DNA of 64,000 nucleotides, taken from a virus. Taxonomy: Duplodnaviria > Caudoviricetes. The translations under genes were made by a program, and so were the position numbers. The notes beneath the pieces are model-generated. The model saw nothing but the letters and a program-made list of their open reading frames with translations. It was not told the DNA's origin and ran no database searches. The stretch is from positions 32,001-96,000 of IMG/VR virus record IMGVR_UViG_3300021431_000005, one strand, 5' to 3'. The stretch's first letter is position 1; every line of letters starts with the position of its first letter. Positions 1 to 54,933 of the stretch are shown here, one piece after another.

Positions 1-1066
1 TTTTTATATCGACCCCTTTGCGAATCATCAAACTAGCAAACGTGTGTCTCAAAGTATGAAGTCCCTGTGGGTCGTCTATATTTGCTCTTTTACAGATTCC
101 TAGATATGAATTTCTAACAGCAGAAACCTCACGTTTTCCATTTGTTGTAATCACAAAATCATCATTATGAGGTTTGGTATTCTCTTTTAATTGAGTTATA
201 TAATAAATTGCCGATCCTGTTAGGTATACGATTCTACTTTTTCGAGTCTTAGTGCTGTCTTGTATTAAAACTTGTCTTTCATTATTTTTATGCGTGACCG
301 CAATATTACTATGAACTTTTATAAATTTATTGTTCAAATCTATATCTTTCCATTTTAGAGCTAACAATTCCCCAATTCGTAGCCCCGTATAAATGAGAAT
401 AATAAAAGCATATCCATTAGAATATTTAAATCTGCCATTTTTGTATTTTGATAGAGCAACCTCTTTAAATGCGTTAATCTCGTCATCATCAAAAAAACGT
501 ATTTCTTTAATTGGTCTACTGATAGATGTTTTAGATGGCTTAGCGACAAATTCACAAGGATTTTTTTCAATCAAGCCTTGATAACAAGCATATTTTAAGC
601 ATTCGTTTGTCAATACATATGCCTTATTGATTGTTGAAAAACTATAATTGGTTTCCTGTAACCTATTTACAAGTTGTAATTGTATAATACTTGTAGTCAA
701 TTCGCTGAGATCGTAGCCACCAATATATGGAACAATATTGTTATTTGCTGTTGTGGAGTCACGGTCATAACTCGCAGGCTTTAATTTGTTTTTCTTTACA
801 TTGTTCAGATAACTATTTAAAAAGTCTTTAAATTGAATATTATTTTTTACGTTGTTAGTATTGGTACTATTCACCAATGTTCCTTGATTCACAAATTCTT
901 TCATCTTATATATAACTTCATCTTGTGACGAGTTAAGGAAACGTTTGTATTTGACTCTACCATTGGAATATTTTCCATTCTCTACCTGACCTATCCACAC
1001 TTGTTTAGTATTGTCATAATACACCGAGCCTAAACCTTTGACGTGTCTAACTTTTTTGTTAGCCAT
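1..1066 (-). CDS. int: Phage integrase (tyrosine recombinase), C-terminus runs off the window edge
   Basis: Absent from the ORF track because it is truncated. ATG at 1066 with a GGAGG RBS. Hand translation gives MANKKVRHVKGLGSVYYD (arm-binding N-terminus) and, in the same frame, GLHTLRHTFASLMIRKGVDIK (HxxR box). Adjacent to a tRNA-derived att core. Confidence 0.92.
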   Translation of the reverse strand, partial: MANKKVRHVKGLGSVYYDNTKQVWIGQVENGKYSNGRVKYKRFLNSSQDEVIYKMKEFVNQGTLVNSTNTNNVKNNIQFKDFLNSYLNNVKKNKLKPASYDRDSTTANNNIVPYIGGYDLSELTTSIIQLQLVNRLQETNYSFSTINKAYVLTNECLKYACYQGLIEKNPCEFVAKPSKTSISRPIKEIRFFDDDEINAFKEVALSKYKNGRFKYSNGYAFIILIYTGLRIGELLALKWKDIDLNNKFIKVHSNIAVTHKNNERQVLIQDSTKTRKSRIVYLTGSAIYYITQLKENTKPHNDDFVITTNGKREVSAVRNSYLGICKRANIDDPQGLHTLRHTFASLMIRKGVDIK

Positions 1067-21560: not shown

Positions 21561-24500
21561 TCATTTCTTGCCAACCAAACGATTCATGTTGGCTTCACGG
21601 ATATACCTATCCATATATCCCCTGAACTCATCATAATTCTTCGCTCTGATGTCGTTACCAGTAAATACAATAGTTGTAGAATTATCTATGCTTCCAGTAG
21701 TTCGCTCGGTAATTCTATCTATGGTTTTGTTATTCATGTAATTCGGAGTTCCGTTAAAGGCACTTGGGTAATTCATAGAACCCGAGAATACACTTGGCGC
21801 ACTATTCATAAACCTGTTCATCTGTTCTGTTTGTCCTGTACTCAATAATTTCCACAGCGTTGAAATCTGCTTATTGTTGAGAACCATTTCAGGATTAGAC
21901 GGTGTTCCATGAAGCATCGCAGGCCCCGTAAAGTCTACAATGCCGCCCTTAGAAAATCCTCTGAATGCCTTTAAAACACCTTCAAACAGAGAACCGATTA
22001 CACCAGATTCTCCACCTTCCCTCAATGCAGAGGTAAATGCTTTTAATGCAAGAGTTTGTTTCTCGGTTGCATTAGCAAATCTTACAGAGTATTCTTCGTA
22101 GAAATCAAGGTATCCCTCTTGTTCCTTCTTTAGCTTTTCATACTGGTCGATTTGCTTGTCATACTCTTTGATTACGCTCTGTGCATCTTCGATTTGAGGT
22201 TCGATAATATAGTGTAACTGATTCTGGAATCCTGCATAATTCAGTGCAAAGGAGTTAATAAGTCCAGTGTCTTTTGCCATAACAGCATCACGCCAGCCAT
22301 AACCAAGTATAGCTGCGGCATTGATTTCGTCCTGTGCATTTTTATACGAGTCGATTGCTTCTTGCCATGCTTCCTTATACTTTTCGTATGCCTCGATCTT
22401 CTCGTCAATCAAAGCAGTTTCTGCATCCCGCTGGCTTTCAAGTTCAGCTATACGATTATTATTGAGCGCATCATCATATTCTCGCTGTGCCTGTTCGAGT
22501 ACCGATTTGTCGCTTTCTATTCTGAATCCGCCACGTTCTTTATCGTAAACTCTGACTTGGGTGTTCCTTGCTTTTGCGAGTGCCAGTTCTTTTTCTCGGA
22601 GTTCGTTAGCACGATCACGTTCTTCATTTTCAGATTTAAGAGCGTCGATCTCGGTGTTGTATCTATCTTCAATTAACTTCTTCTCGTCTTCGAGAGACTT
22701 GATTTCTCGGTCGATTGCGTTCGATACCGCACTTGCCGCACTTTCATAATTAGAGATGATTGTTTCAAGAGCTTCTTTTTGCTCATTGAGGGATTCAAGA
22801 ATTTCATTCTGCTTATCTTTCTCTTCTTCAATAGCCTTGATTTTATCATCGTACAACTTAATTTGATTTTTGAGTTTAATAATAACATCGTTATACCCCG
22901 TGATAGATTCGGGTAACTCTTGTAATCTTGCTATAAGATTGTCAATGGCTTTGATTTGAGATTTATCAGTAAGCGTAGTCCTAATACTTCGCAGAGTTTC
23001 AACCAAATTGTCAGGCGCATTATCTCTAAGTTCAACAAGTTTTCCACGGAGTTTATCTGTATCGTCTATAACAGATATAAGCTCAGGATGGGCAGTAACT
23101 AATCCCCACGCTTCGTCATTATATGTACCTTCGTCAATTGAGTCGATGATCTGTTGTATAGATTCTACATCGCTCTTAATTGCATCTGCCTCATCAGAAT
23201 ACGAAGAGTAATCAAAAGACCCAGACGCAGCCTCCCAAAACTTCTTCGTCAGTTCGTTTATTTTGCTCGCAGCATTTTTAGCCGCTTCTTCTGCACCTTC
23301 GCCGGTAAATTCAAAACCGACCCTAAGTTTGAGATAGTCTTCTCCACCGCTAAGTACCTTTTGTGCATAATCTCTGACTTCTTCGTCACTAAGGAATCTA
23401 GGTGTGCCGTCCTTATCGTATGTTCGAGAAGAAAAGTTTGCCGCACCATTTCCTGAATTAGAAACGATAGTGGTAACTTTACCACCATTTTTAAGCCAAG
23501 CGTTGCCGCCTTTTTCGTATTCTTTAAGGGTATCAAAATACTCCTTGACCTTTTCAGCAGGACTTCTCGTGTCAACATTAACAGGTTGGTTAAACAATAT
23601 ATCAAGCAGGGTTTTCCAACTTGCCGTATTTTCTTTCGCTTTAAGAATATCGTCGTTGAGTGCCTTGACTTTCTTAGTATAATCTGCATACTCAGCCGCA
23701 TCACTCGGAGAACTGATATTATCAGGGGAAGTCACAGTATAGCTTTCTTTGATTGTATCAAGCTGTTTCTCTTTATCTTCCGCCCATTTCTCATTCGCTT
23801 CAATTTCTTTCTGTATGGTTTCTTTGGTTGACTTAAAGAAATTGTTTCTTGCTGTTTCAATATCAGAAAGCGCAATGGTGTAGCCGTCTGCGGTTTTAGT
23901 AAACTTGTCGGCGAGACTAGCATCAATATCAATAAGTTCTTTAACGTCAGCCGCTGAAAGACTCTCGCCTTGTAATAGAGCAGAGCGAGCGGAATCAAGT
24001 CTCGAAAGGCTTTCATTGGTTTTACTGTATGTTTCGTCCTTGAACTTTTTGAGATTCTGATTATAACCATCAAGCAGACTGTTGATTCCCACGGTCTTTT
24101 CAGCAATCATCGACTCAATATCATTGAATGTGGATTCTACGGTGTCCTTTGTAGCCGTATCATTATCGTCAATGCTTTTAAGAGCTACGTCCTTTAACGT
24201 TTTGATTGTTTCAGACCATGTATAAATCTCGGCGCTGTTGGATGAGCCGACGATGTTTTGAGCGTAATTGTAAGCGTTGTTTAGAATCTGCTGAATATCC
24301 TCGGGAATTTCACCCTCGTTGGATTCTCCACCGTCAATCAATTTCTGCATTTCCTCAAACGAAGAAATCAATTCTTTGTCGCGAGATATTTTTTCTTTGA
24401 GTTCTTTGCGCTTTTTATCAATCGCAGTTAACCACGCCATCTCGTTCTTGTTGCTCTTATCTATTGCGCCATCCAAGTCTTTCCAGAGTTTATCAAGAGT

Positions 24501-25613
24501 ATCTGCCTGTTCTTCAAGAGTACCAAATATACCGATATAATTGTAATTTTTGCTACCTTCTATTCCTTGGCGATACCCAATGTTTTGGTACTTCTCAATA
24601 GTTTCTTTATATTTTTCCCAATTTCCCCAACCACTTGCCTTTATTTCTGTTATACCTTTTGTTCCAAAAGAAAGATAAGTGCCGCCGTTGGACATTGTAA
24701 AATCTTTGCCAGCAAATTGACTCTCCTGTTTTAATTCATCTTTGGCATTATCATACCCTGTTTGATTCTCGTTAATAAATTCCTTGGCTCTTTCATAACG
24801 AGCCTTCTGTATCAGGTTAAGATTCTCAACATATTTGCCGTTGACTAAATCAACAGCCTTAGCTTCGTCACCCAGTTTTTCAACCAGCTTATCCTGAATA
24901 GAAGTCAGTTCTTCCTTCGACTTAGTTAAGTCTTCGCCGCTTAAAGCAAGTTTGTCATAAGTGTCAATCAGTTCTTCAATGGCTTCCTGTTCGTTTTTAT
25001 ACTCTTCGACATTTTCTTTGAGCTTTTCAATAGTCTCTTCTATATCAGCTTGTGCTTCTTTTTCTTTGTTGATAAACGTGGTTATTCCAGCGATTATACT
25101 AGAAATTGCCATAGAGACACCAAATGTTAATACTGCATTGAGTGCTACGTTCGCCGCTGTATAAGCCACAGTCTTAGCCGTTGCTCCGACAAGCTGTTTA
25201 GCGCAATCTCCAAATCCCATCTTTGCGCCGTTAAGCCCCTTAATAGTTCCGCCGAGTTTTCCATCAAGGTCTGAAAGAGCATTGGTGTATGCAGTTACCT
25301 GTTCGGGTGCGCCATGTTTTACTAGGTCATTATACTGCTTGATAGCTTTAAAACGCCCTACGATGCCGTTAGACAAATCAATCTGGGACTTATAGAAACT
25401 CTCCATGCTTACATTGGCGGCGTCAGTGTTTTTAGCAAACTCAATAAGGTCTTTGTTTACGTGTTTTAGAGAGTCGAGATTGCCACCCCGATATATTGCA
25501 GTATCTATTTCTTTAAAATCATCAACAGAATATTGAGAAAGTTTATTATATTTTAACCCTTTTAAAAATTCTATCCTTTTTTTATTTGTTGTTTTGTCGT
25601 TTATATTTACTAT
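21561..25613 (-). CDS. Tape measure protein, exon 2
   Basis: Coiled-coil; C-terminal FSKGGIVDFTGPAMLHGTPSNPEMVLN TMP motif. No usable RBS of its own. In frame with exon 1 after predicted splicing (about 2945 aa total). Confidence 0.88.
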   Translation of the reverse strand: MVNINDKTTNKKRIEFLKGLKYNKLSQYSVDDFKEIDTAIYRGGNLDSLKHVNKDLIEFAKNTDAANVSMESFYKSQIDLSNGIVGRFKAIKQYNDLVKHGAPEQVTAYTNALSDLDGKLGGTIKGLNGAKMGFGDCAKQLVGATAKTVAYTAANVALNAVLTFGVSMAISSIIAGITTFINKEKEAQADIEETIEKLKENVEEYKNEQEAIEELIDTYDKLALSGEDLTKSKEELTSIQDKLVEKLGDEAKAVDLVNGKYVENLNLIQKARYERAKEFINENQTGYDNAKDELKQESQFAGKDFTMSNGGTYLSFGTKGITEIKASGWGNWEKYKETIEKYQNIGYRQGIEGSKNYNYIGIFGTLEEQADTLDKLWKDLDGAIDKSNKNEMAWLTAIDKKRKELKEKISRDKELISSFEEMQKLIDGGESNEGEIPEDIQQILNNAYNYAQNIVGSSNSAEIYTWSETIKTLKDVALKSIDDNDTATKDTVESTFNDIESMIAEKTVGINSLLDGYNQNLKKFKDETYSKTNESLSRLDSARSALLQGESLSAADVKELIDIDASLADKFTKTADGYTIALSDIETARNNFFKSTKETIQKEIEANEKWAEDKEKQLDTIKESYTVTSPDNISSPSDAAEYADYTKKVKALNDDILKAKENTASWKTLLDILFNQPVNVDTRSPAEKVKEYFDTLKEYEKGGNAWLKNGGKVTTIVSNSGNGAANFSSRTYDKDGTPRFLSDEEVRDYAQKVLSGGEDYLKLRVGFEFTGEGAEEAAKNAASKINELTKKFWEAASGSFDYSSYSDEADAIKSDVESIQQIIDSIDEGTYNDEAWGLVTAHPELISVIDDTDKLRGKLVELRDNAPDNLVETLRSIRTTLTDKSQIKAIDNLIARLQELPESITGYNDVIIKLKNQIKLYDDKIKAIEEEKDKQNEILESLNEQKEALETIISNYESAASAVSNAIDREIKSLEDEKKLIEDRYNTEIDALKSENEERDRANELREKELALAKARNTQVRVYDKERGGFRIESDKSVLEQAQREYDDALNNNRIAELESQRDAETALIDEKIEAYEKYKEAWQEAIDSYKNAQDEINAAAILGYGWRDAVMAKDTGLINSFALNYAGFQNQLHYIIEPQIEDAQSVIKEYDKQIDQYEKLKKEQEGYLDFYEEYSVRFANATEKQTLALKAFTSALREGGESGVIGSLFEGVLKAFRGFSKGGIVDFTGPAMLHGTPSNPEMVLNNKQISTLWKLLSTGQTEQMNRFMNSAPSVFSGSMNYPSAFNGTPNYMNNKTIDRITERTTGSIDNSTTIVFTGNDIRAKNYDEFRGYMDRYIREANMNRLVGKK

Positions 25614-25641
25614 CGGACTTATAAATATATGTGGGAATATA

Positions 25642-25670
25642 TTGACAAAAATATAATTGCATGATATAAT
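25642..25670 (+). promoter_or_regulatory. Consensus sigma-A promoter of intron cargo gene
   Basis: TTGACA-17bp-TATAAT with extended -10 TG; AAGGAG RBS at 25676-25681. Confidence 0.85.
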
Positions 25671-25681
25671 AATCAAAGGAG

Positions 25682-26149
25682 ATGATGAGAATGTCAGAGA
25701 AATATGTATTTATATGCCCAAAGTGTGGTCAAGTGGAGGGAATTACTTATCCTCATGGAACCATCGTTAATTGTTGTTTCTGTGAAACTCAATTATTAGA
25801 AACCAGTCTTACATTACATGAATCGGCTGAAGCAATAAGAAATGGTACGATTGAAATTATTGACCGCAAACTGTTCGAGCAGTATGTAAAAAACAATCCC
25901 TTGTATGACCAAAATGAGGCAGAACTTTCAAAGCTTAAAAGAGAAACTAATAAGATAGCGAACGAGATGCGGTACGCCGCCGAACGTGCTGTCAAAGAAG
26001 CAAACAAACCGCATTGTCCAGTATGCAACTCAACCAATGTTGAGCGGATCGGCGCAGTCCGCAAAGGTGTTTCAATTGCCGTTTTCGGATTGTTCAGCGG
26101 TGATATTGGAAAGACGATGGTTTGCAATAATTGCGGATATAAGTTCTAA
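25682..26149 (+). CDS. Zinc-ribbon protein encoded antisense inside the TMP intron
   Basis: CPKC/CCFC and CPVC/CNNC knuckle pairs; hydrophobic GVSIAVFGLFS segment; no HNH, GIY-YIG or LAGLIDADG motif seen. Confidence 0.85.
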   Translation: MMRMSEKYVFICPKCGQVEGITYPHGTIVNCCFCETQLLETSLTLHESAEAIRNGTIEIIDRKLFEQYVKNNPLYDQNEAELSKLKRETNKIANEMRYAAERAVKEANKPHCPVCNSTNVERIGAVRKGVSIAVFGLFSGDIGKTMVCNNCGYKF

Positions 26150-26503
26150 AAACATTGTATTGATTTCGCCCTTTTCCCACTATGGCGGCGTGACCATATA
26201 TGATTTTTCAGTATTAAATACTGTTGTCCAGAGTACCCCATCACGATTTTCTACATATCGTTGTAGTTGACCGTGCTACCATTATACTCGTTGAACCTTC
26301 CTTTTCCAAGGCTTGGCTGCGGATTCGATAGCATTTCAGCTATCCTCCCCGAGCGAGAATCATAAAACTCGCTGTGCTATGCACCATGTTCGGTAGTTTT
26401 TCCAAAGCTCTCTTGTTGATATTACGAATACAATATCAACTCGTTCCGTGTTACCACCAGAGCTTACTCGGGCATATTCGCTGAGGGCAAACATTTTAGC
26501 CCT

Positions 26504-29500
26504 ACCCGAGCCTGTTTTCATTTGCAGTCCAGTTAAACCGAACGCAGTCGCTATTCCTGCGCCTGCCGCCGCACCATTCTTGGCGATTCCGTCTAATAAT
26601 TCAAGAAGTGTCTTTGCGCCGTCAATGAGAAATTTGACGGCTTCGCTGTTTACGGTATCAACTGATAACTGCTGCCATGTGGACTTCAACTGATTAAGTT
26701 TTCCGTCTATAGAATCAAGAGAAGATTCTAACTCCTTAGAAGCCGAACCTTCTGCAAGTCCCTCGTTCAAATCTTCAACAACTTTTTCTGCTGTCTCGAA
26801 GTTTCCAAGGATCGCCTGAACTGTATTAAGACCAACTTTACCACCAAGCATTTCGGCAATATCTGCTTGCTGCGAATCAGTTAACGTGTCATACACCCCA
26901 GAGATTTCTTTGAGTATCTGGTATGTAGATTTAAAAGTATTTTCGTCTTGCATAATGTCAATTCTTGTAATACTTTTTATCTTATCACGCAGTTCAGCAG
27001 TAGTAATTGTCATTTCTTCTGCATCTTCGCCAAGCTGATCCGTTGTGCCTCGGATTCTTGCAGAAATAGATTTAAGTGCCGTGCCAACAGTTTCCGTATT
27101 CTGTACGATAGTATTGGCAGAAGTAATAAGACCTATGGATTCGTTGAGATCGTTGCCTGCCGCATTCAAGGATGCCGCCGACCTCTGTAACGCATCGCCT
27201 ACTCCCTTGCTTGTGATTGCGAAGTTGTTGCCAGTATAATTGAACTTATCAACAATTTCTTCTGCGGTTACGCCGATTTTCTCATAAGCCTGCATTGTCG
27301 AAATAATGCTTTGGCTCGCTGTCTGAATATCTAAATCGTCGCCGACGGTTTTATAAACCGTTGCAAGTTTACCAAGATTTTCAGCTTCATTCAACGATTT
27401 ACCTAATCGACTGAACTCAGAGGTTGCATCAACATAATCCGTGAGTGTAGCACCTATATCCACAGAACGACCGCCTGCTGTATCTAAATACTGTTTGAGC
27501 TGTCTCTCGTTTGCATCTGTAACCTTTCTAAGATTCGTCATTGCAGTATCAACTTCATGAACCTGAGTAACCATATCTTTGAGCAATCTCACAGTATAGT
27601 TCAAACTCTTGGTAACAAACGCCCAACCGCCGTACTTCTTATACAATTCTCCAAGTACGTTACCGAAAGTCTTGCCGGACACGCCAGCTTCTTTAACGGT
27701 TCTGTCAAGTGCCGACATATCCGCTCTTAATTTATTCAGGTCTTTATCACTTTGAATTGCGCCCATGCTTATCCTATTAGTTAGTTCTTCATAGGCTTTT
27801 GCGAAATAAGGGTCTTTAAGCGCCTTAGAGTTATCGTCACCCCATTTTCCGAGTCGCTTTACTGTTTCTTCGTATTTTTTCTGAAAAGCAATTGCTGCGT
27901 TATCTGCCTGCTCCTGCTCTTTCATCGCTTTATTACTTTCTTTTTGAGCAGTTGTAAAATTATTTACGGCTTCGGTAACTTCGTCAAGTCTGTTAATATA
28001 TTCTATTAAAGGCTGAATTGAATTACCAAAGTATTGTTCTTTAAGAAAATCAGCGTCTTTTCCCTGAGCAGATGCCGCATTCACGATATATTCATTCTTT
28101 CGGCTCTCAAAATTGTTTGATAACGCTTCGAGCTGATTATTGTCAAGATTACCGATATTTGCCAGAATCTTTTGCGTTTCCCCACCGCTATCTCTGAGTT
28201 GTTTTAATAGCTTTTTAAGTTTTTGAACCTTTTTAGAGAAGTCGTCTATCTCGATATTACTACCATCGAAATTAAACATTGTTAGTCTTGCATCGTCATA
28301 ATCCTCGTATGCTTTGTGAATCTCGGATTCGTATACTTCAGGTTCTTCGGCTAAATATGGATTCTTTGAATAATTGCTTATTACCCCAAGTCTATATTCG
28401 AGAACTTTGAGTTTTTCTGTGTTACCGCCTGCAGCTTCAACCATTTTAATTGTACTACGCAATGTCTCTAACTTCTCATTTGCTTTCTCAGATTCAGAAA
28501 TGATCTCTCTGAGTGAAATAGCTAAGTCAGAAACGGTTTGAATATCATGAGATTCTTTTTGTAAATAATCAGTAAATCCCTGATCTTGACTATACAAATC
28601 TTCTTTGATTTGATTAACTGTATTACCAGATAAATTGGGTCGTTGAACCTTTTTGAGCATACTTTCGGCATTTGTATAAAAAGTAAGTATTTCATTAAAC
28701 TTATGTTCAAAATCATCTATTGGTTGAGATGTGGCATTAGGATGATTATCAAAATACCGTTTTATGTATTCAAATGAATCAAATACTTTTTTTACCGAGT
28801 CAAAATAAGTTGTAATATCTTGCCCAAGAGTCGCAGCTCTTTTAACAATTGCAGGATTGCCATTGGTAGTTATGGGAAGAGTTTGGGAATACGACAAGAG
28901 AGTATTTATGTCACTAATGTTTTTTTTCTGCCAATTCCCGAAGGATCTATTGTGTTCTTCCAACTCCTCCATTAATTCTTTGCGTTTTTCTTCAGATAAG
29001 TTTGCCTTGTTTATCTTCTTCACAACGTCTTCAATGTTTGAATAGATAACACGCATCTGTTCATATAATTCATTAAAGCCAGCTGTTGTGTGTGGCAATT
29101 GAGAATTGGTTTCTTTTAAAGATTTATCGAGAAATTCAAATAAATCATAATTCTCTTTTACTGTTGAAGATATTTCAAACGCTCTCTGTCTATCAGAGGC
29201 GGCGTTTTCAATTCCGCCAACGGTATTATCCTGAGTTTTAGAAGCGCCGCTGTTAACTATAGTTGGTTGATTTTTTTGTAACAGCTGCATAAGCTGTGCG
29301 AGCTGCGCTTGTGTCAGAAGACCACCGCTTGAATTTACTAATGCACTAAAATTAGTAACCTCAGTTTTAAACGTCTTGCCAAGTTGCGCTATTATATTAT
29401 CCAACTTCTTGCCAACGACATCAGCGTAATTGTCTTTGTTGTTAGCATTAGCAATCGACTTGTTGATTGAATCCGCCAAGGTTGCAATCTGTGTTTTGTA

Positions 29501-31288
29501 GAACACCTCGTTCACAGACTGTTCGTTGTCAACAGATTCAACTTGTATAGGCGAGTCAAACTTAGAAATCAGATTGTTGATAGCTTCTATTATTGTGTTA
29601 AGAAGATTGTTTACTTCGGGGGTCGTAGTATCATTCTGCTCTGTGTTTTCTTTTGTCTCAATAGCTTCGCTGATAAAGTCGTTTGTCCATTCGAGCCTGT
29701 TTTGTATATCCACGATACGCTCTGTTAACGATTCTTCATAAATGGGTTCTACACTTTCATCATTGTGCATTAACTGAGACTTTAAAAGACTATCTTCTGC
29801 AAAATCAACATTGATAGTTTGATTAAGTTTTTCGTAAATCGAATTAAGTTTTGTGCCAATAGAAGCAAGATTATTTATAATGTCAGGATCCACTGGTGTC
29901 TCAGGGGGAGGAGGTGAAGTTGTTGTGTCAGGATTTGATTCTTTTGGTTTATTGTTTTGCTTAATTTCGATATGTTTTGACAAAACATCACTCTCGACGC
30001 TCTCTATCTTTTTGAGTCCGTCAGCAATCATCTTTATAGATTTTGCGATTGTATCAAGTTTATTTGGAACTACAAAATCAATGTTGATTTCATGAGTCTT
30101 ATTGTCTATTTCATTGAGTATATCAGACAAAACTTTTAGTCCATTATCTTGTATATCAACTTTAATCTTAACGTCCTTGGATTCTACATTTGACAACTGT
30201 CCAATTGTTTGATCCAATTTGCCGACTTCTTTATTTACGTTCCCAACATTGCTTTCCAATGCTCTGATTGTATTATTGGTTGCATGAATATATTCTTGTA
30301 AAACAGAAACAGTTTGGCTCATTGGCGAAAGCGTAGTTTCGTTTACCGAATCAAAAGTATCCTTAAATATTTTTACAACCTGTATCATTCGTTTTATAAC
30401 ATCTTCAAGATTTTGAAAAGGAGAAGCCATTCCTTTTCCCGCATTTTCAATCGCATCAGTTGTTTTAGTTAGTTGTTTTATTTCTTTTGGTACAGGGAGT
30501 ATATCGCTTGCTTTTATTGTGTCTTGGGTTAGTTTAAAATTATTATTCCATGCCCTTCCAAAGCTTGATGCTGAAACCCCTATTTCAGTATACAGGGCTT
30601 TAAAGTCATCTTTATATTGTTTAGTTTCATCCGAAAAAGATTCGAGAGTTTTAATACTACCCTTAATATTTGAATTGAAGTCTAAACTGGGATCAATTTT
30701 TAATAGTGTTTGAAGTTTATTTAATACACCATAGGCTTTATTTGCAGTATCAGACAGCATTCCAATTTCATCAACCATCGCTTCGTATGCTTCCTTTGTT
30801 GTCTTGCTGTCTTTTCTGCCGGATTGCATGGCGCGTTGTAGATTACCGAAACTTTCTACCGCCTCTGGATCGCCAAGAGTTTCGTACATATTGGTTATTT
30901 CACTATTTAAATTAAGAAACTCGCTTTTTAAATTATCAAATGTTTTTTGAAGCGTTGCCTGATCCGTCATAATATCAGGTCTAATTTTCGAGAGAGTCCT
31001 AAGTCCTTCGAGAACTTCTTTGCGAAGTCCCTCGGAATCAAACTTGACTTTAAAAGTCTTGTTTATTATTTCGCTTCTGCCACCCATATTGAGTATGCGT
31101 CCAATAGCTTCGTTTACTTTGTTTAATTTTGAAGCTTCAACTGGACTATCGTTTTCTTTGATTATATAATTTGCCGTAATATTTACGCCTTTGGACTCAA
31201 GCTTTTGTATCTTTTTTTCTAAATCATCCAGTTCTCCGTTGTTGACTTTTGTATCAAACACTATATCAAAATTGCTATTTTCATCCAT
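26504..31288 (-). CDS. Tape measure protein, exon 1
   Basis: ATG 31288 with GAGGTG RBS; TP901-type core VDTAMTNLRKVT...VDKFNYTGNNFAIT...GTALKSISARIRG...FKSTYQILKEIS. Confidence 0.9.
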
Positions 31289-31298
31289 TTGTCTCACC

Positions 31299-49897: not shown

Positions 49898-50886
49898 CTA
49901 CTTTTTTATTTCTATATAATTAACACCATATAAATGAATGATGCCGCTATCGTCCTGTCTAAGATACCCGACAGGCTCTTTGCTCCTTAACACCATGTCA
50001 AAGAACGCTCCGTTTCTTGAACTAAATAATATATGGAACAGAGACATACTCAAATCCTTGTTCTCATCCTTTTCAAGTTCTTTGAGTAAGAAGAACATCG
50101 TGCTGTTACTTATTTTCATATCAGTAATCGCATTAGAACAGCGCTCTCGGATTTCGTTCATTGCTTTAAACTTTTCTTCATTCGTCGAGTTAGAGGCAGA
50201 GTAAACCATGTTAACATCGGCTTTCATTTCTCTGACCATTTCAAGAATGCGAATAATCTGATCTCGCTTCTGCGCTCCCTTTTTGTATAATGAGCTATCT
50301 ATTATATCAATGAATGCAACCTGATTTTTTCTGCCGTCCCACCTATATCGTGGTATATGGAATCTGCGAATAACAGACTGAACGTAGTCCATCGTTGTAT
50401 TATGCTGTTTGTAATTCTTTCGCTTTGAATTATAATACCCCTTAGACCTTGCAAGATGTCCAAAGAAGTTTGGTTTTATGTAACGTTGTTTGTTGTCCAA
50501 CCGCAGGTATTTGTCTTTGAGGATCCCGATTTCTTTTGCGCTATCTAACTGGTATTCTTTCTTTGCTTTATCAATCTCTACATTAGATAATATTGCCAGT
50601 TTCACAATATCATCGTACAACTCTTTGTTGTCCTCAAACGTTTCACCGCTGTTGATTTTATCCCAGAATAATGTATTAAGCTCTTGTGACAGGTTAACAA
50701 TCTCTCCAATCTTATTAACACTTGTCCTTATATCAAGGTCGCATTTGTCGGCATTATTGTAATAACGTTTTCTTTTGCTTGCTGATACTCTTGAAGTCGG
50801 TATAGCAAAGTTATTATAATTTTTCTCAGCAGCATCAATAAGTAGTTTGTTGTTTGTAAGTAGCATTGTATCGCTATCAAAGTCGC
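49898..50886 (-). CDS. YonO-like single-subunit RNA polymerase, exon 2
   Basis: After splicing reads (C)DFDSDTMLLTNN; IGEIVNLSQ...EIDKAKK...KPNFF...TTMDY motifs. Confidence 0.88.
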
Positions 50887-51196
50887 CATTGAACCCTCGG
50901 TTTCCCGATATTTCAGTAGGGGATTAGACTATTTCTTTATCTCAAAGAGATACTCGGCACTTCCACCGCAGAATTACACTGCAAGTGTATAGATTTCATC
51001 GACCAAATTGGTCGGTATATCTTAGTCGTTACATCTTCAAAGCCGTTACCGGCAATGCTTGACACGACATTATCATGTGGAACTAAATTATAATTTAGTT
51101 CTATTTAGATTCCGTCGTTAGCAGCTTTCGCTACACCCTGTATGTACAGGTTCACCGAGTTTGCTACCACACGTCGCCGCATGGTGGGGCGCATTC
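50887..51196 (-). ncRNA. Group I intron (310 nt, ORF-less) in RNAP active-site codon
   Basis: P1 GGGT|/GCCC; P3 ACTCGGT/GCCGAGT; P7 GACTA/TAGTC (R GTAACGACTAA, S AAGAAATAGTC); P9 CGG-GAAA-CCG; terminal G at 50887. Confidence 0.92.
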
Positions 51197-52991
51197 ACCC
51201 GTTCAACTTTTCAAGCAAATTCTCTCCAATACTATTTACACAAACTATCTCTTCCGAAAGATGAAAATATCTATCAATCCTCTCATCCGCCACATTATTG
51301 GCAAGCAGAATATTCCCTGCACAGATATGCGGACTTCTCGAACCTAATAATCTTGTTCCATAATCAAATCTAATATTATGTATATTCCCGACACCGAGTT
51401 CAGACTCGCCAGTAAATCTCCCAATTGAATGGAGTAACATCTCGTAAGGGTTGCCGAACAATGTAGAATAGTTGCCGTTGACAAGCACATGACCCGATTG
51501 AAGGTTTTTCTTAAACGATATAAGCAAGTCTCTAAGAAAATCGTGATACAGCTTTGTCTCAACGAAGCGATCATTAAGACCGAGCATCTGATAAATAACA
51601 TCGTTCTTGTTGTTTATTTCCTCAAATGTTATTTCCTGATTTTCGGGATATTTGATATGGTTTCTAACTACCGCAGGATTATAGCGCAGGCTTGTCATGT
51701 ATTCAAACGACTGAGCAAGTAACCGTTCTACTTCTTCGTATGACAACTGTAATGTATTCAATAATTGATAGTGAGTCTGCACAAGTCGCCCCTCGAAATA
51801 ATGAGTTGGCTTCTCATGCTTGACAATTCCAAATGACGTTTCCAAATTATCAAGCCACTGATCCAATGTTCCAAATTTAAGATATTTAATACTGCTGGGG
51901 GTTGTTATAAGCTTTATCTCGTCAATACTTTTCGCCCATGTGTAGCCATTAAGCTGCGATACATCGGTAATGCCATTGTCGGCAAAAAACTCTTGAATGT
52001 GTGTAGAGAACGCCGCAGTTTTAAAGAAGCGGTTTCGTAATAATAGCATTCCGTACTTCTGATATTTGCCAAACAGAGAATAGTCCATGAGGGTTTGACC
52101 GTCCCAAATACTGTTGTCTATTTCTACTTCTTCATTGTTGGTAACGAGTGTTTCACCGTCAAAAGAAACTGCGGCCGCTTTTGATTTAAATACGCTGTGA
52201 TAGTCGTCAATGACCAGTATATTCTCGGGCTGTATTTCAACCGTATCAATTATACTACTAAGAGTAAGCGATATATATGCTTCGTATGCGGCAAGGTCTA
52301 TCTCGGCATTGTTCTTTATTCTGAGTCCACAGCATTCCCACTTGTGCATCCTGCTGTACAACTTCTCGTCAATAAACAAGCATTTACCGACACGACTGCT
52401 ACCACTACTGCGTTTAAAACGTATGTATTTTATTCCGTCACACAAGAATCCGTTAGTGTAAAGTTCTTGTCTCAAATCCGCAACTGTATTCAAGACCTCT
52501 ATGTTGTCCTTGGCTTTGTATTTATTGTCCTCATAATAAAAGAACCGCCCGAGTTGTTCGTCATCAACAGGGGCGGTTACAGTCGTATTTACTTTTATGG
52601 CTATCAGTTCATTGTCTTTTAAACAAACGCAATCATCAAGTTCTATATCATTTATATCATAACCGAACTTGACGTATGTATCGGCGGTGACTCGATTGTA
52701 TTCTTTGTTGCTGTAATTAAACGTAACGTTTATGACTCGCTGTGAATATTCCTTGCCTGAGTCCATAAACGAAAAGCGTTTATTGTGGTAGACCTTTTGA
52801 TAAACCTCACGAAGTTTAAAAAGGTCAAGACAGTAGTCGAGATCGCCCGAGAACTTTTTCAGACTGATAGTTCCGTCACGGCGGCGGATATTATATCCAA
52901 TAGGGTTGGGTTTGTTATAATGGTTCGCTATGAATATATCTTTGGCATCGAGGTTAAGGATTTTAATTGACTTTGGTGTACTCATTCGCAT
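51197..52991 (-). CDS. YonO-like single-subunit RNA polymerase, exon 1
   Basis: FKRSSGSSRVGKCLFI, WDGQ, LLRNRFFK, RSPH motifs of the RdRP-like phage RNAP family; about 927 aa spliced. Confidence 0.88.
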
Positions 52992-53001
52992 CTCTCCTTT
53001 A

Positions 53002-53751
53002 TTACTCAAAAGCATGGTCTATAATATCGTTTTTCTTTTCGTATACTGTGAATTGAATATTCTGAACTTTACCTTTTGTGTAAACCTTGTCATACTTAAC
53101 TTGAATATCAGTTTTGGCATTGATTTCTTCAATTACCGGCATGAGTATTTTTTGGTTCATCTTTTGAAAGTTGCTCGTATAGTAATGCGATGATATGCGA
53201 AAAATATCTTTATTTAGTGTTGTTAAATCAATCATCCAATTTCGCCTAAAAGAATTATCTTTTAAATATTGATAGAGCAAGATGCTATACGAGCTTTTCA
53301 TCATTATTGTATTTTTTAAACTGTACTTGACATATCCCATTGATTCAATATTAAAGAATAAGCACTTGGCAAGTTCACTGCATTTTAATCTTATCTTGAC
53401 AATGCCAGTTTCTTCATCTGTGAATAAAGCAGCGCCATCAAACAAATTACAAACAAGAATACCGTTTTCATTGTTGTATGGAACCGTTGTTTGAATCTTT
53501 ATAATTTCCGAAAGACTTTTGATTAATGAAGGTTTGTTAATCCTTTGTACCCCAAGTAATTGTTCATACTCGTTAATATCAAATTCAACCACTGTGGATT
53601 CGGGATCGTGCGAGTTGATACGACTCAAATATGTGTCTAAAATTTTGAGTTGTCCTAATGTGTATGGCACCTCTGATGCCATTACCAAGGGGTGACTTTT
53701 TTGGACTATGTGGCTACCAGAGATTCCGTTTAATACTTTTTCATCATTCAT
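53002..53751 (-). CDS. Plasmid-type replication initiator (Rep_3/RepB family)
   Basis: VQKSHPL...LKILD.YLSRI...KSSYSILLYQYLK...IL.PVIEEINAKTDI.V.Y...KV..IQF winged-helix motifs. Confidence 0.85.
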   Translation of the reverse strand: MNDEKVLNGISGSHIVQKSHPLVMASEVPYTLGQLKILDTYLSRINSHDPESTVVEFDINEYEQLLGVQRINKPSLIKSLSEIIKIQTTVPYNNENGILVCNLFDGAALFTDEETGIVKIRLKCSELAKCLFFNIESMGYVKYSLKNTIMMKSSYSILLYQYLKDNSFRRNWMIDLTTLNKDIFRISSHYYTSNFQKMNQKILMPVIEEINAKTDIQVKYDKVYTKGKVQNIQFTVYEKKNDIIDHAFE

Positions 53752-54207: not shown

Positions 54208-54933
54208 TTAAAGCAGATCAGAGATCGCATCGTAATATCTGTCTTGTCTTTCACGGTCGAGTCCACAGTACCTCAGCGTAGTCCTGCTTGAACTGTGATT
54301 AAACATTTCCTGTACATCTGCGAGCGTGAGGACATCGTTAGGGTTTGAGCGTATCGTGTGGTAGCCAAACGTCTTTCGCATAGTATGTGTGCTAAGATGC
54401 TCTTCAAGTCCAAGGGCTTCCTGCGGTGCGTGGACTATCCTATAGAGTTGGCTCTTATCTAACTTGCCACCACGTTCAGACTGAATCAGGTAGTCATCGA
54501 ATGTCAGCTTTTTCTTGGTGACGAACAGGTAGTCTCTGATTGCTTCTGCGGCACGAGCGCTAAGTTTGGGATCGTTCCTTTTATTGGTCTTTTGTTCTCT
54601 GATTATTATGTGATGCTTAAACGAGCCGTCCTCGTTAATCACATCTCCGATTCTAAGATTGAGAACATCGCTTGCTCTAAGCCCTGTACTGGTTCCGAGG
54701 ATGAATGCCATTAAATTGCGGCGACCGTACCACTCTGTTTTGGCGTTGCTCAAGATATACTCTTCGATCTGTTTGAGAACTTCGGGGTCTCGGATAGGCT
54801 CGGCGGCGGTTGCCTTTTTGATGTTTTTCGAGGTGTACCGTGAGGTCTTGTCTGACTTCTTCGGCTGTACGAACTGCGAGATTTCAATGCTTGTTGCCGT
54901 GGATTCGGGCGAGATTTTTCTTGCTGTGTTCAT
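54208..54933 (-). CDS. Catalytic-domain-only tyrosine recombinase (resolvase-like)
   Basis: TGLRASD, EQKT, STHTMRKTFGY, FNHSS...TLRY. Confidence 0.9.
   Translation of the reverse strand: MNTARKISPESTATSIEISQFVQPKKSDKTSRYTSKNIKKATAAEPIRDPEVLKQIEEYILSNAKTEWYGRRNLMAFILGTSTGLRASDVLNLRIGDVINEDGSFKHHIIIREQKTNKRNDPKLSARAAEAIRDYLFVTKKKLTFDDYLIQSERGGKLDKSQLYRIVHAPQEALGLEEHLSTHTMRKTFGYHTIRSNPNDVLTLADVQEMFNHSSSRTTLRYCGLDRERQDRYYDAISDLL

Follow-up and report, generated by a model that had tools for sequence, protein, structure and literature searches.

We consider it likely that a group I intron in the tape measure protein (TMP) gene of an SPβ-like phage carries an independent antisense cargo unit, that the product of this unit is a non-nuclease zinc-ribbon factor, and that the intron serves as a safe-harbour slot for accessory genes. 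The window analyzed here is a 64,000-nucleotide stretch of viral DNA. Comparative evidence establishes the fold of the RNA, both splice sites, the agreement of the promoter with its consensus, and how the antisense gene is conserved and placed.

The host record of the window is a complete virus genome of 117,052 bp with direct terminal repeats. SPβ-type virion gene families, namely, YonD, YonB, YomW, YomV, YomU, and YomN, were found in its relatives, and the 117-kb genome is that of a complete SPβ-like phage. A temperate lifestyle is plausible because the genome contains three tyrosine recombinase (Phage_integrase) genes (window positions 1–1066, 1673–2743, and 54208–54933) and because one relative is integrated within a 1.36-Mb Anaerovorax (bacterial) contig.

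Two large TMP ORFs on the minus strand (31297..26360 and 25676..21561) flank a plus-strand ORF (25682..26149). The TMP profile phrog_4211 is collinear over both, with profile positions 549–951 in the first and 958–1640 in the second, which agrees with the claim of an earlier note, made from the sequence of the window, that the TMP gene is split in two. The same note had claimed that removal of 890 nt joins the halves in frame, and the conceptual joint 26504/25613 does so, connecting exon 1 (26504–31297, minus strand; 1598 codons, with the PhageMin_Tail domain at residues 1280–1486) to exon 2 (21561–25613, minus strand; 1350 codons plus the stop codon, beginning Ile-Val-Asn). Many uninterrupted TMPs align straight over this joint: the residues K-T-G-S-G before and I-V-N after it correspond in a gap-free alignment to K-x-G-(S/G) and I-(V/A/L) in intron-less homologues, so ligation of the exons would give an intact host gene. 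These results indicate that both ORFs are halves of one TMP gene.

The sequence between the exons can be modelled as a group I intron of 890 nt (25614–26503, minus strand), running from the first base after U26504 to ωG 25614; all coordinates of its elements refer to the minus strand. The 5′ part of the ribozyme (26174–26511) extends from P1 to the 5′ strand of a helix that closes a large loop. P1 (26511–26504/26473–26466) consists of eight pairs, including U26504·G26473, and has an extension hairpin in its loop (26503–26484); the P10 partner lies at 26479–26474. These elements are followed by P2 (26465–26459/26411–26405), P2.1 (26440–26415), P3 (26396–26392/26280–26276), two extra hairpins between P3 and P4 (26384–26353), P4 (26351–26348/26323–26320), P5 (26343–26328), P6 (26318–26315/26297–26294), P6a (26311–26300), P7 (26289–26284/26236–26231), P8 (26275–26242), P9.0 (26229–26226/25618–25615; GGAC/GUCC), P9 (26223–26209), and P9.1 (26198–26181). 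The loop-closing helix (26180–26174/25637–25631) encloses the terminal loop of the last peripheral helix (25638–26173), a cargo bay that contains the promoter and the antisense gene, and the 3′ tail of the intron (25614–25637) comprises the 3′ strand of this helix (25637–25631), the 3′ strand of P9.0, and ωG 25614.

The same insertion at the same codon boundary was found in the closest relatives (loci L001/L010, L004/L005, L002/L003, L006/L007, L008, and L009), in which the 5′ segment of the intron is 315 to 345 nt long and ~81 to 90% identical. RNAalifold recovered P1 with its U·G pair, the P1-loop hairpin, P2, P2.1, P4, P5, P6, P6a, P7, P9, and P9.1, with compensatory changes in 26 of the 75 predicted pairs. 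The full helix model, which consists of this fold with the P3/P7 pseudoknot and P8 added manually, was counted on an alignment of seven related introns: 97.4% of the cells were paired, compared with 30 to 43% in slid-partner controls, and 35 of the 86 modelled pairs showed changes on both sides, a count reached in none of 500 shuffles and set against at most six pairs in the slid controls. The group I core that the earlier note had described on the coding strand was thus present with all of its listed elements. Compensatory changes occurred in P3 (three of five pairs), P5, P6, P7, and P8, and P4 was invariant. RNAalifold had paired the 5′ strand of P3 with the 5′ strand of the loop-closing helix instead; since six copies have CUACC/GGUAG at P3 whereas L008 has CCGAC/GUCGG, so that the 5′ strand changes together with the partner after P7 but not with the segment chosen by RNAalifold, the P3 partner was settled and the RNAalifold alternative was rejected.

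The elements that define the splice sites also covary. The U·G pair of P1 at the 5′ splice site was kept in all six copies, with one pair of the helix changing from C-G to U-A, and other intron types at the TMP site show covariation between exon and guide sequence. Four complete introns (890, 1172, 838, and 1510 nt), all of which end in G followed by an Ile codon, fix the 3′ splice site. In these four introns, P9.0 is GGAC/GUCC (window), AGAC/GUCU (L001 and L006), or GGAC/GUUC (L004). The P1 pair at 26504, P7, P9.0, and ωG reported by the earlier note were all recovered, with covariation in P9.0. P10 comprises three pairs in the window intron and five to seven in L001, L004, and L006, with a compensatory change from U-A to C-G between L001 and L006. 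In L001, A-U replaces G-C in the loop-closing helix. The presence of compensatory changes in nearly every helix, including the splice-site-defining P1, P10, and P9.0, points to continuing selection on the fold, and we hold it to be highly probable that the group I intron and its splice sites are real.

The earlier note had named the Rfam model RF00028 as a check on the intron, and here its expectation failed: the window intron, searched as slices of 326 to 1501 nt, gave no match at the gathering score or even at E ≤ 10. RF00028 also missed every TMP-site intron of the relatives searched. The core departs from the RF00028 consensus in having two covarying P3–P4 hairpins in place of a short three-base joiner. 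The Q-P6-R core motif of the TMP-site introns occurs in 49 viral contigs, and RF00028 matches were found at the motif in those contigs tested, indicating that the motif itself is common to Rfam-recognized introns. Judged from its alignment with relatives, the insertion is an intron of a type overlooked by the Rfam model, located at a conserved Gly/Ile codon boundary of the TMP gene. A blastn search of the region against GenBank phages and close-relative scans of viral contigs with a piece of exon 1 and with the cargo protein gave no match. P0007, which had appeared to be uninterrupted at the TMP site, was discarded as a blastp alignment artefact; L004 has an intron at the same site.

The missing Rfam match would also fit a locus at which no splicing occurs, with two separate TMP polypeptides made and the gap being an ordinary intergenic moron site that retains a decayed ribozyme, and in-frame TTG and ATG-like starts are indeed present upstream of exon 2. 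However, exon 1 would then read on through 47 codons of ribozyme sequence before its end, all lineages keep the exact in-frame junction, and the compensatory changes described above show continuing selection on the fold. We regard this explanation as very improbable.

Within the intron, a σ70-type promoter on the plus strand (25642–25670) consists of TTGACA, a 17-nt spacer, and a TG-extended TATAAT; all 12 consensus positions match, and its description as perfect in the earlier note was borne out. It lies 5 nt in from the closing helix, at a distance of 28 nt from the 3′ splice site. The antisense double zinc-ribbon gene follows at 25682–26149 (plus strand), encoding 155 amino acids from the first ATG with four CxxC pairs. 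The ORF is present as previously described, but the start codon is more likely to be the third ATG at 25691, which has the best spacing to a GGAG Shine–Dalgarno sequence and gives 152 amino acids, the length of the form on record (P0124). No terminator-like site was found after the gene in the window. In the protein, a helical linker joins an N-terminal CxxC...CxxC ribbon to a C-terminal ribbon that is highly conserved; family members share 27 to 81% identity, and all eight Cys residues are invariant. Profile searches of Pfam, PHROGs, PADLOC, and the PDB returned only generic zinc-ribbon or zinc-finger matches, with no nuclease family signature, in line with the reading of the gene as cargo in the earlier note. 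A language-model atlas placed the protein with viral and Bacillota clusters, none of them named, and no fused longer forms of the C-terminal ribbon were found. Among 20 family members, no Pfam match to HNH, His-Me, GIY-YIG, LAGLIDADG, or PD-(D/E)xK was detected at E ≤ 1, nor any catalytic motif of the His-Cys box or EDxHD type. Their alignment has no invariant Asp, Glu, or His, with His111 being replaced in the member from L013, and this speaks against a nuclease that is complete in itself. With respect to the features of a moron, the window unit has a promoter, no terminator was found, the content of the slot varies among relatives, and the zinc-ribbon family is conserved. A lysogeny-expressed moron acting in superinfection exclusion or defence, as the earlier note proposed, is a hypothetical reading of the gene.

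A profile built from the 200 residues that precede the TMP site was used to fetch 80 viral loci of 20 kb. The TMP gene was interrupted at the site in 59 loci, uninterrupted in 17, and cut off in 4. One to three members of the zinc-ribbon family were present in 57 of the 59 interrupted loci, all of them antisense and the last one adjoining exon 2, although these 57 loci are not independent events because the interrupted loci fall into about five ribozyme lineages. In 55 of the 57 loci, no more than about 90 nt separated the last member from the beginning of the exon-2 frame; in L136 and L143 the distance was 482 nt. TMP gaps accounted for all 86 family ORFs of the surveyed loci; the remainder of the 20-kb loci contained none, and none was found in the 17 uninterrupted or the 4 cut-off loci. 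L013 contains a full-length homologue, antisense and adjoining exon 2, in a same-site intron with a ribozyme of another sequence type, and full-length homologues are placed in the same way in the large TMP inserts of L070 and L073. L012 and L016 also hold antisense members; that of L012 is a C-terminal ribbon behind an N-terminal membrane segment. As far as the surveyed sequences go, these results indicate that the zinc-ribbon gene is a conserved resident of introns at the TMP site rather than interchangeable cargo.

Such a near-universal link between gene and intron would be expected if the protein served mobility or regulation, rather than if the gene were a random moron, and the residence pattern is compatible with a role connected with the intron itself. 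The zinc-ribbon protein could be the mobility factor of the intron, either a homing endonuclease of a new kind or a specificity subunit that binds DNA and brings in a nuclease, with the antisense orientation making it independent of the late transcript. It is the only ORF conserved over the TMP-site introns, through at least four ribozyme sequence types; it occupies the usual position of a homing endonuclease gene; and it is absent where the TMP gene is uninterrupted. Moreover, the presence of the intron differs among close TMP relatives, as gain and loss by homing would give, and there are precedents for antisense homing endonuclease genes, such as that of I-DirII, among the group I introns of nuclear rDNA (PMC3073962). 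Against this stand the lack of a nuclease domain or an invariant catalytic-type residue noted above and the occurrence of up to three zinc-ribbon copies in one intron. In addition, type-1 introns with near-identical ribozymes in L001, L004, and L006 lack the gene and have membrane proteins in the same slot, and the family is also represented away from TMP genes, in a chromosomal island that carries a TnsB-like transposase and DUF2513. We consider a mobility function unlikely. The island itself (L071/L072, 4392–8237) is of the TnsB/Mu transposase type and is inserted in a histidine biosynthesis operon, and its pair of zinc-ribbon and DUF2513 genes recurs in the TMP insert of L073.

The cargo that accompanies or replaces the zinc-ribbon gene differs among relatives, as a comparison of the same TMP site in homologous phages, suggested in the earlier note, confirmed. 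The L001/L010 intron carries an antisense gene for a 215-aa membrane-anchored protein, the L004/L005 intron an antisense gene for a 94-aa protein with two transmembrane segments, and the L006/L007 intron a sense 141-aa and an antisense 201-aa gene that converge on a common hairpin. Terminator-like hairpins lie directly after the antisense genes in L001 and L006, and the motif TTGAC(A/T)-17-TGATATAAT is common to the antisense promoters of the related introns. The inserts of L002 and L008 begin with a sense promoter and ORF. That of L009 contains genes for RNase H-RnlA and RnlB followed by an antisense 424-aa gene. RnlAB was not accepted as proven intron cargo, since the L009 contig ends before exon 2 and a close RnlA homologue in L074 lies outside the TMP gene; its location inside the intron in L009 is probable.

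The largest lineage comprises 52 loci, whose 5′ cores are 91.5 to 100% identical but whose inserts have 46 distinct lengths, from 1.85 to 6.13 kb. The inserts contain a sense unit with its own promoter and an antisense unit, which are convergent. In all 52 loci, an in-frame G precedes an Ile, Val, or Met codon at the start of exon 2, and the first eight bases of exon 2 pair at seven or eight positions with the eight bases just 5′ of the P1 guide. The exon-2 start is also homologous to that in the window. The pairing at the G/exon-2 boundary and this homology suggest that the whole insert behaves as one intron. Among the ORFs sampled from these inserts were SocA/Panacea antitoxin domains, retropepsin-like proteases, and DUF3800, and none matched an endonuclease family; PemK and RnlA/RnlB are also among the cargo genes of related TMP inserts, RnlA/RnlB being only probable within an intron. 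Taken together, the inserts compared here clearly mark the intron loop as an insertion-tolerant slot for independently transcribed genes, a variable cargo hotspot. The idea of a hotspot, put forward in the earlier note, therefore holds for the 46 insert lengths in 52 loci but not for the zinc-ribbon gene, which is itself conserved in 57 of the 59 interrupted loci. In L070 (6843–14190, 7.3 kb) and L073 (6949–12750, 5.8 kb), the TMP gene is split by still larger inserts that are candidate introns. These contain Bro-N/ANT, IS256 transposase, DUF723/CapR-like, PemK, HTH regulator, and DUF2513 ORFs, with the zinc-ribbon gene last and antisense; the IS256-type transposase is in the L070 insert, and L070 is split at a different TMP site.

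The position of the zinc-ribbon gene relative to the 3′ splice site raises the possibility that the antisense unit regulates TMP, its transcript and perhaps its protein hindering late transcription or ribozyme folding until the promoter is off. The zinc-ribbon gene is the gene nearest to the 3′ splice site in 57 of the 59 interrupted loci. In the 52-locus lineage its start codon is only about 25 to 45 nt from that site, so the promoter must lie in exon 2 and the mRNA would cross the splice site. In the window, where no terminator was found, transcription would cross the ribozyme core in antisense into exon 1, and the transcript may thus be more than a neutral passenger. The location of the promoter differs between introns, however: that of the window is inside the intron, and its mRNA would not cover the 3′ splice site. 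In addition, the hairpins in L001 and L006 lie right behind the antisense genes, in L001, L004, and L006 the slot houses unrelated proteins instead, and the strong conservation of the zinc-ribbon protein implies that the product matters and not the act of transcription alone. We judge such regulation to be improbable, somewhat more so than a mobility function, and retain the reading of a non-nuclease factor encoded by an independent cargo unit.

Group I introns in TMP genes have themselves been described. Tourasse and Kolsto reported TMP-IVS1, IVS2, and IVS3 in prophage TMP genes of the Bacillus cereus group in 2008 (PMC2504315); these were assigned to IA1 or IA2 and lie at three conserved TMP sites, with several different introns able to share a single site, and TMP-IVS3b and a tube intron were named as being without a complete homing endonuclease gene (PMC2504315). 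Like the window intron, they are self-splicing-type group I introns in Bacillota prophage TMP genes (PMC2504315). Compared by description, however, they are ribozymes with or without endonuclease remnants, and the accessible part of that report mentions no antisense cargo with its own promoter and no multi-gene cargo (PMC2504315).

The introns of T4 td, nrdB, and sunY, of the SPO1 and Moonbeam DNA polymerase genes, and of SPβ bnrdE/bnrdF are likewise ribozymes that interrupt an essential phage gene and carry an ORF in one of their peripheral loops. Some of the sense-strand ORFs in phage introns have their own promoters. Those ORFs are homing endonucleases on the sense strand, whereas the window ORF is on the opposite strand, has a consensus σ70 promoter, and shows no nuclease family or motif. 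IStrons (CdISt1 and BcISt1) are the known case of a ribozyme with non-endonuclease cargo (PMC4227781, bioRxiv 10.1101/2023.11.20.567912). As proposed for the window intron, splicing by a group I ribozyme makes the insertion harmless to the host gene, and the cargo, an insertion sequence, is no classical homing endonuclease gene. IStron cargo, however, is an IS200/IS605-type transposase or TnpB, which moves the element to many sites, whereas the window intron has a fixed site, no transposase, and accessory and zinc-ribbon genes; transposase domains were absent from the cargo of the window and of the surveyed type-1, type-2, and type-4 introns. The antisense arrangement of an endonuclease gene is known only in introns of nuclear rDNA, as with I-DirII of Didymium, which is an antisense intron ORF with its own promoter like that of the window (PMC3073962). 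By contrast, I-DirII is eukaryotic, has a Pol II promoter, and is a bona fide His-Cys box endonuclease, whereas the window ORF belongs to a phage, has a σ70 promoter, and lacks a nuclease motif. Phage morons are also independently promoted genes among late genes, vary among close relatives, and are often of the toxin–antitoxin or defence type; classical morons sit between genes, whereas the hotspot of the window type is inside a coding sequence and is made harmless by predicted RNA splicing.

No description of antisense cargo with its own promoter, or of multi-gene accessory cargo, in phage group I introns was found in a literature search of incomplete coverage. The suggestion in the earlier note of an undescribed system must accordingly be divided: group I introns in TMP genes have been known since 2008 (PMC2504315), and non-endonuclease, antisense, multi-gene cargo with its own promoter, which was not found in the searchable literature, may be new.

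Other selfish elements populate the same structural modules, among them a free-standing GIY-YIG/NUMOD endonuclease gene among the tail genes of L012 (2817–3491) and an RF00028-positive intron in another gene upstream of TMP in L152 (2385–2716). Further candidate elements were seen in the window and the related loci. Window positions 50887–51196 (minus strand), between ORFs 51195..53015 and 49898..50866, contain R- and S-like motifs, a canonical GACUA/UAGUC P7, and a plausible 5′ site directly after GGGT, with no Rfam match there. In L007, positions 1925–1745 (minus strand) resemble the 3′ part of another structured insertion upstream in the same TMP gene, and this candidate ends just before the PhageMin_Tail coding sequence resumes. 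In L004 (15499–16312), a 255-aa gene with an abiF RNA motif behind it (RF03085, scoring 38.4 bits where the cut-off is 37 bits) lies right after a shortened TMP C-terminal ORF and may be a second TMP insertion. Nine RF00028 matches occur within about 4 kb (L027, 1857–5753) of a 356-kb viral contig, an unusually dense array.

In the mechanism that we propose, the late pre-mRNA would fold so that the internal guide pairs with both the end of exon 1 (P1, with its U·G pair) and the start of exon 2 (P10), and guanosine-dependent splicing, an activity that we infer from the conserved structure, would then rejoin a TMP of about 2948 amino acids. The terminal loop of the last peripheral helix tolerates insertions. 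In the window, this loop contains a single transcription unit on the opposite strand, with an extended −10 promoter, a Shine–Dalgarno sequence, and a two-ribbon protein of 152 to 155 amino acids, and in related phages further genes, including those for membrane proteins, toxin–antitoxin-type modules, DUF3800, and a retropepsin-like protease, have accumulated between the zinc-ribbon gene and the ribozyme core. With regard to timing and function, our best guess is that the zinc-ribbon protein has an accessory or regulatory role rather than that of a nuclease, that its own promoter makes its synthesis independent of late transcription, and that the intron acts as a safe-harbour slot for such genes within an essential gene. 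A stronger version, in which group I introns at one TMP site are self-splicing safe harbours for a hypervariable island of up to 6 kb of independently transcribed accessory genes, toxin–antitoxin and defence-type modules among them, and the zinc-ribbon protein has a function tied to the intron (mobility, control of splicing, or exclusion of intron-less competitors), is a possibility to which we give somewhat less than even weight.

Annotation pipelines cut these TMP genes in two and overlook the intron, because the standard RNA model does not detect it. If the multi-kilobase inserts are spliced, they would represent an unappreciated route by which phages store and exchange accessory genes within essential genes at no cost to the protein, and introns of 2 to 6 kb with convergent internal transcription units would stretch current assumptions on how ribozymes fold in bacteria. 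With its conserved sequence and antisense placement, the zinc-ribbon family may represent a new type of intron-associated protein, and a function tied to the intron, if true, would make it a new class of intron-encoded protein.
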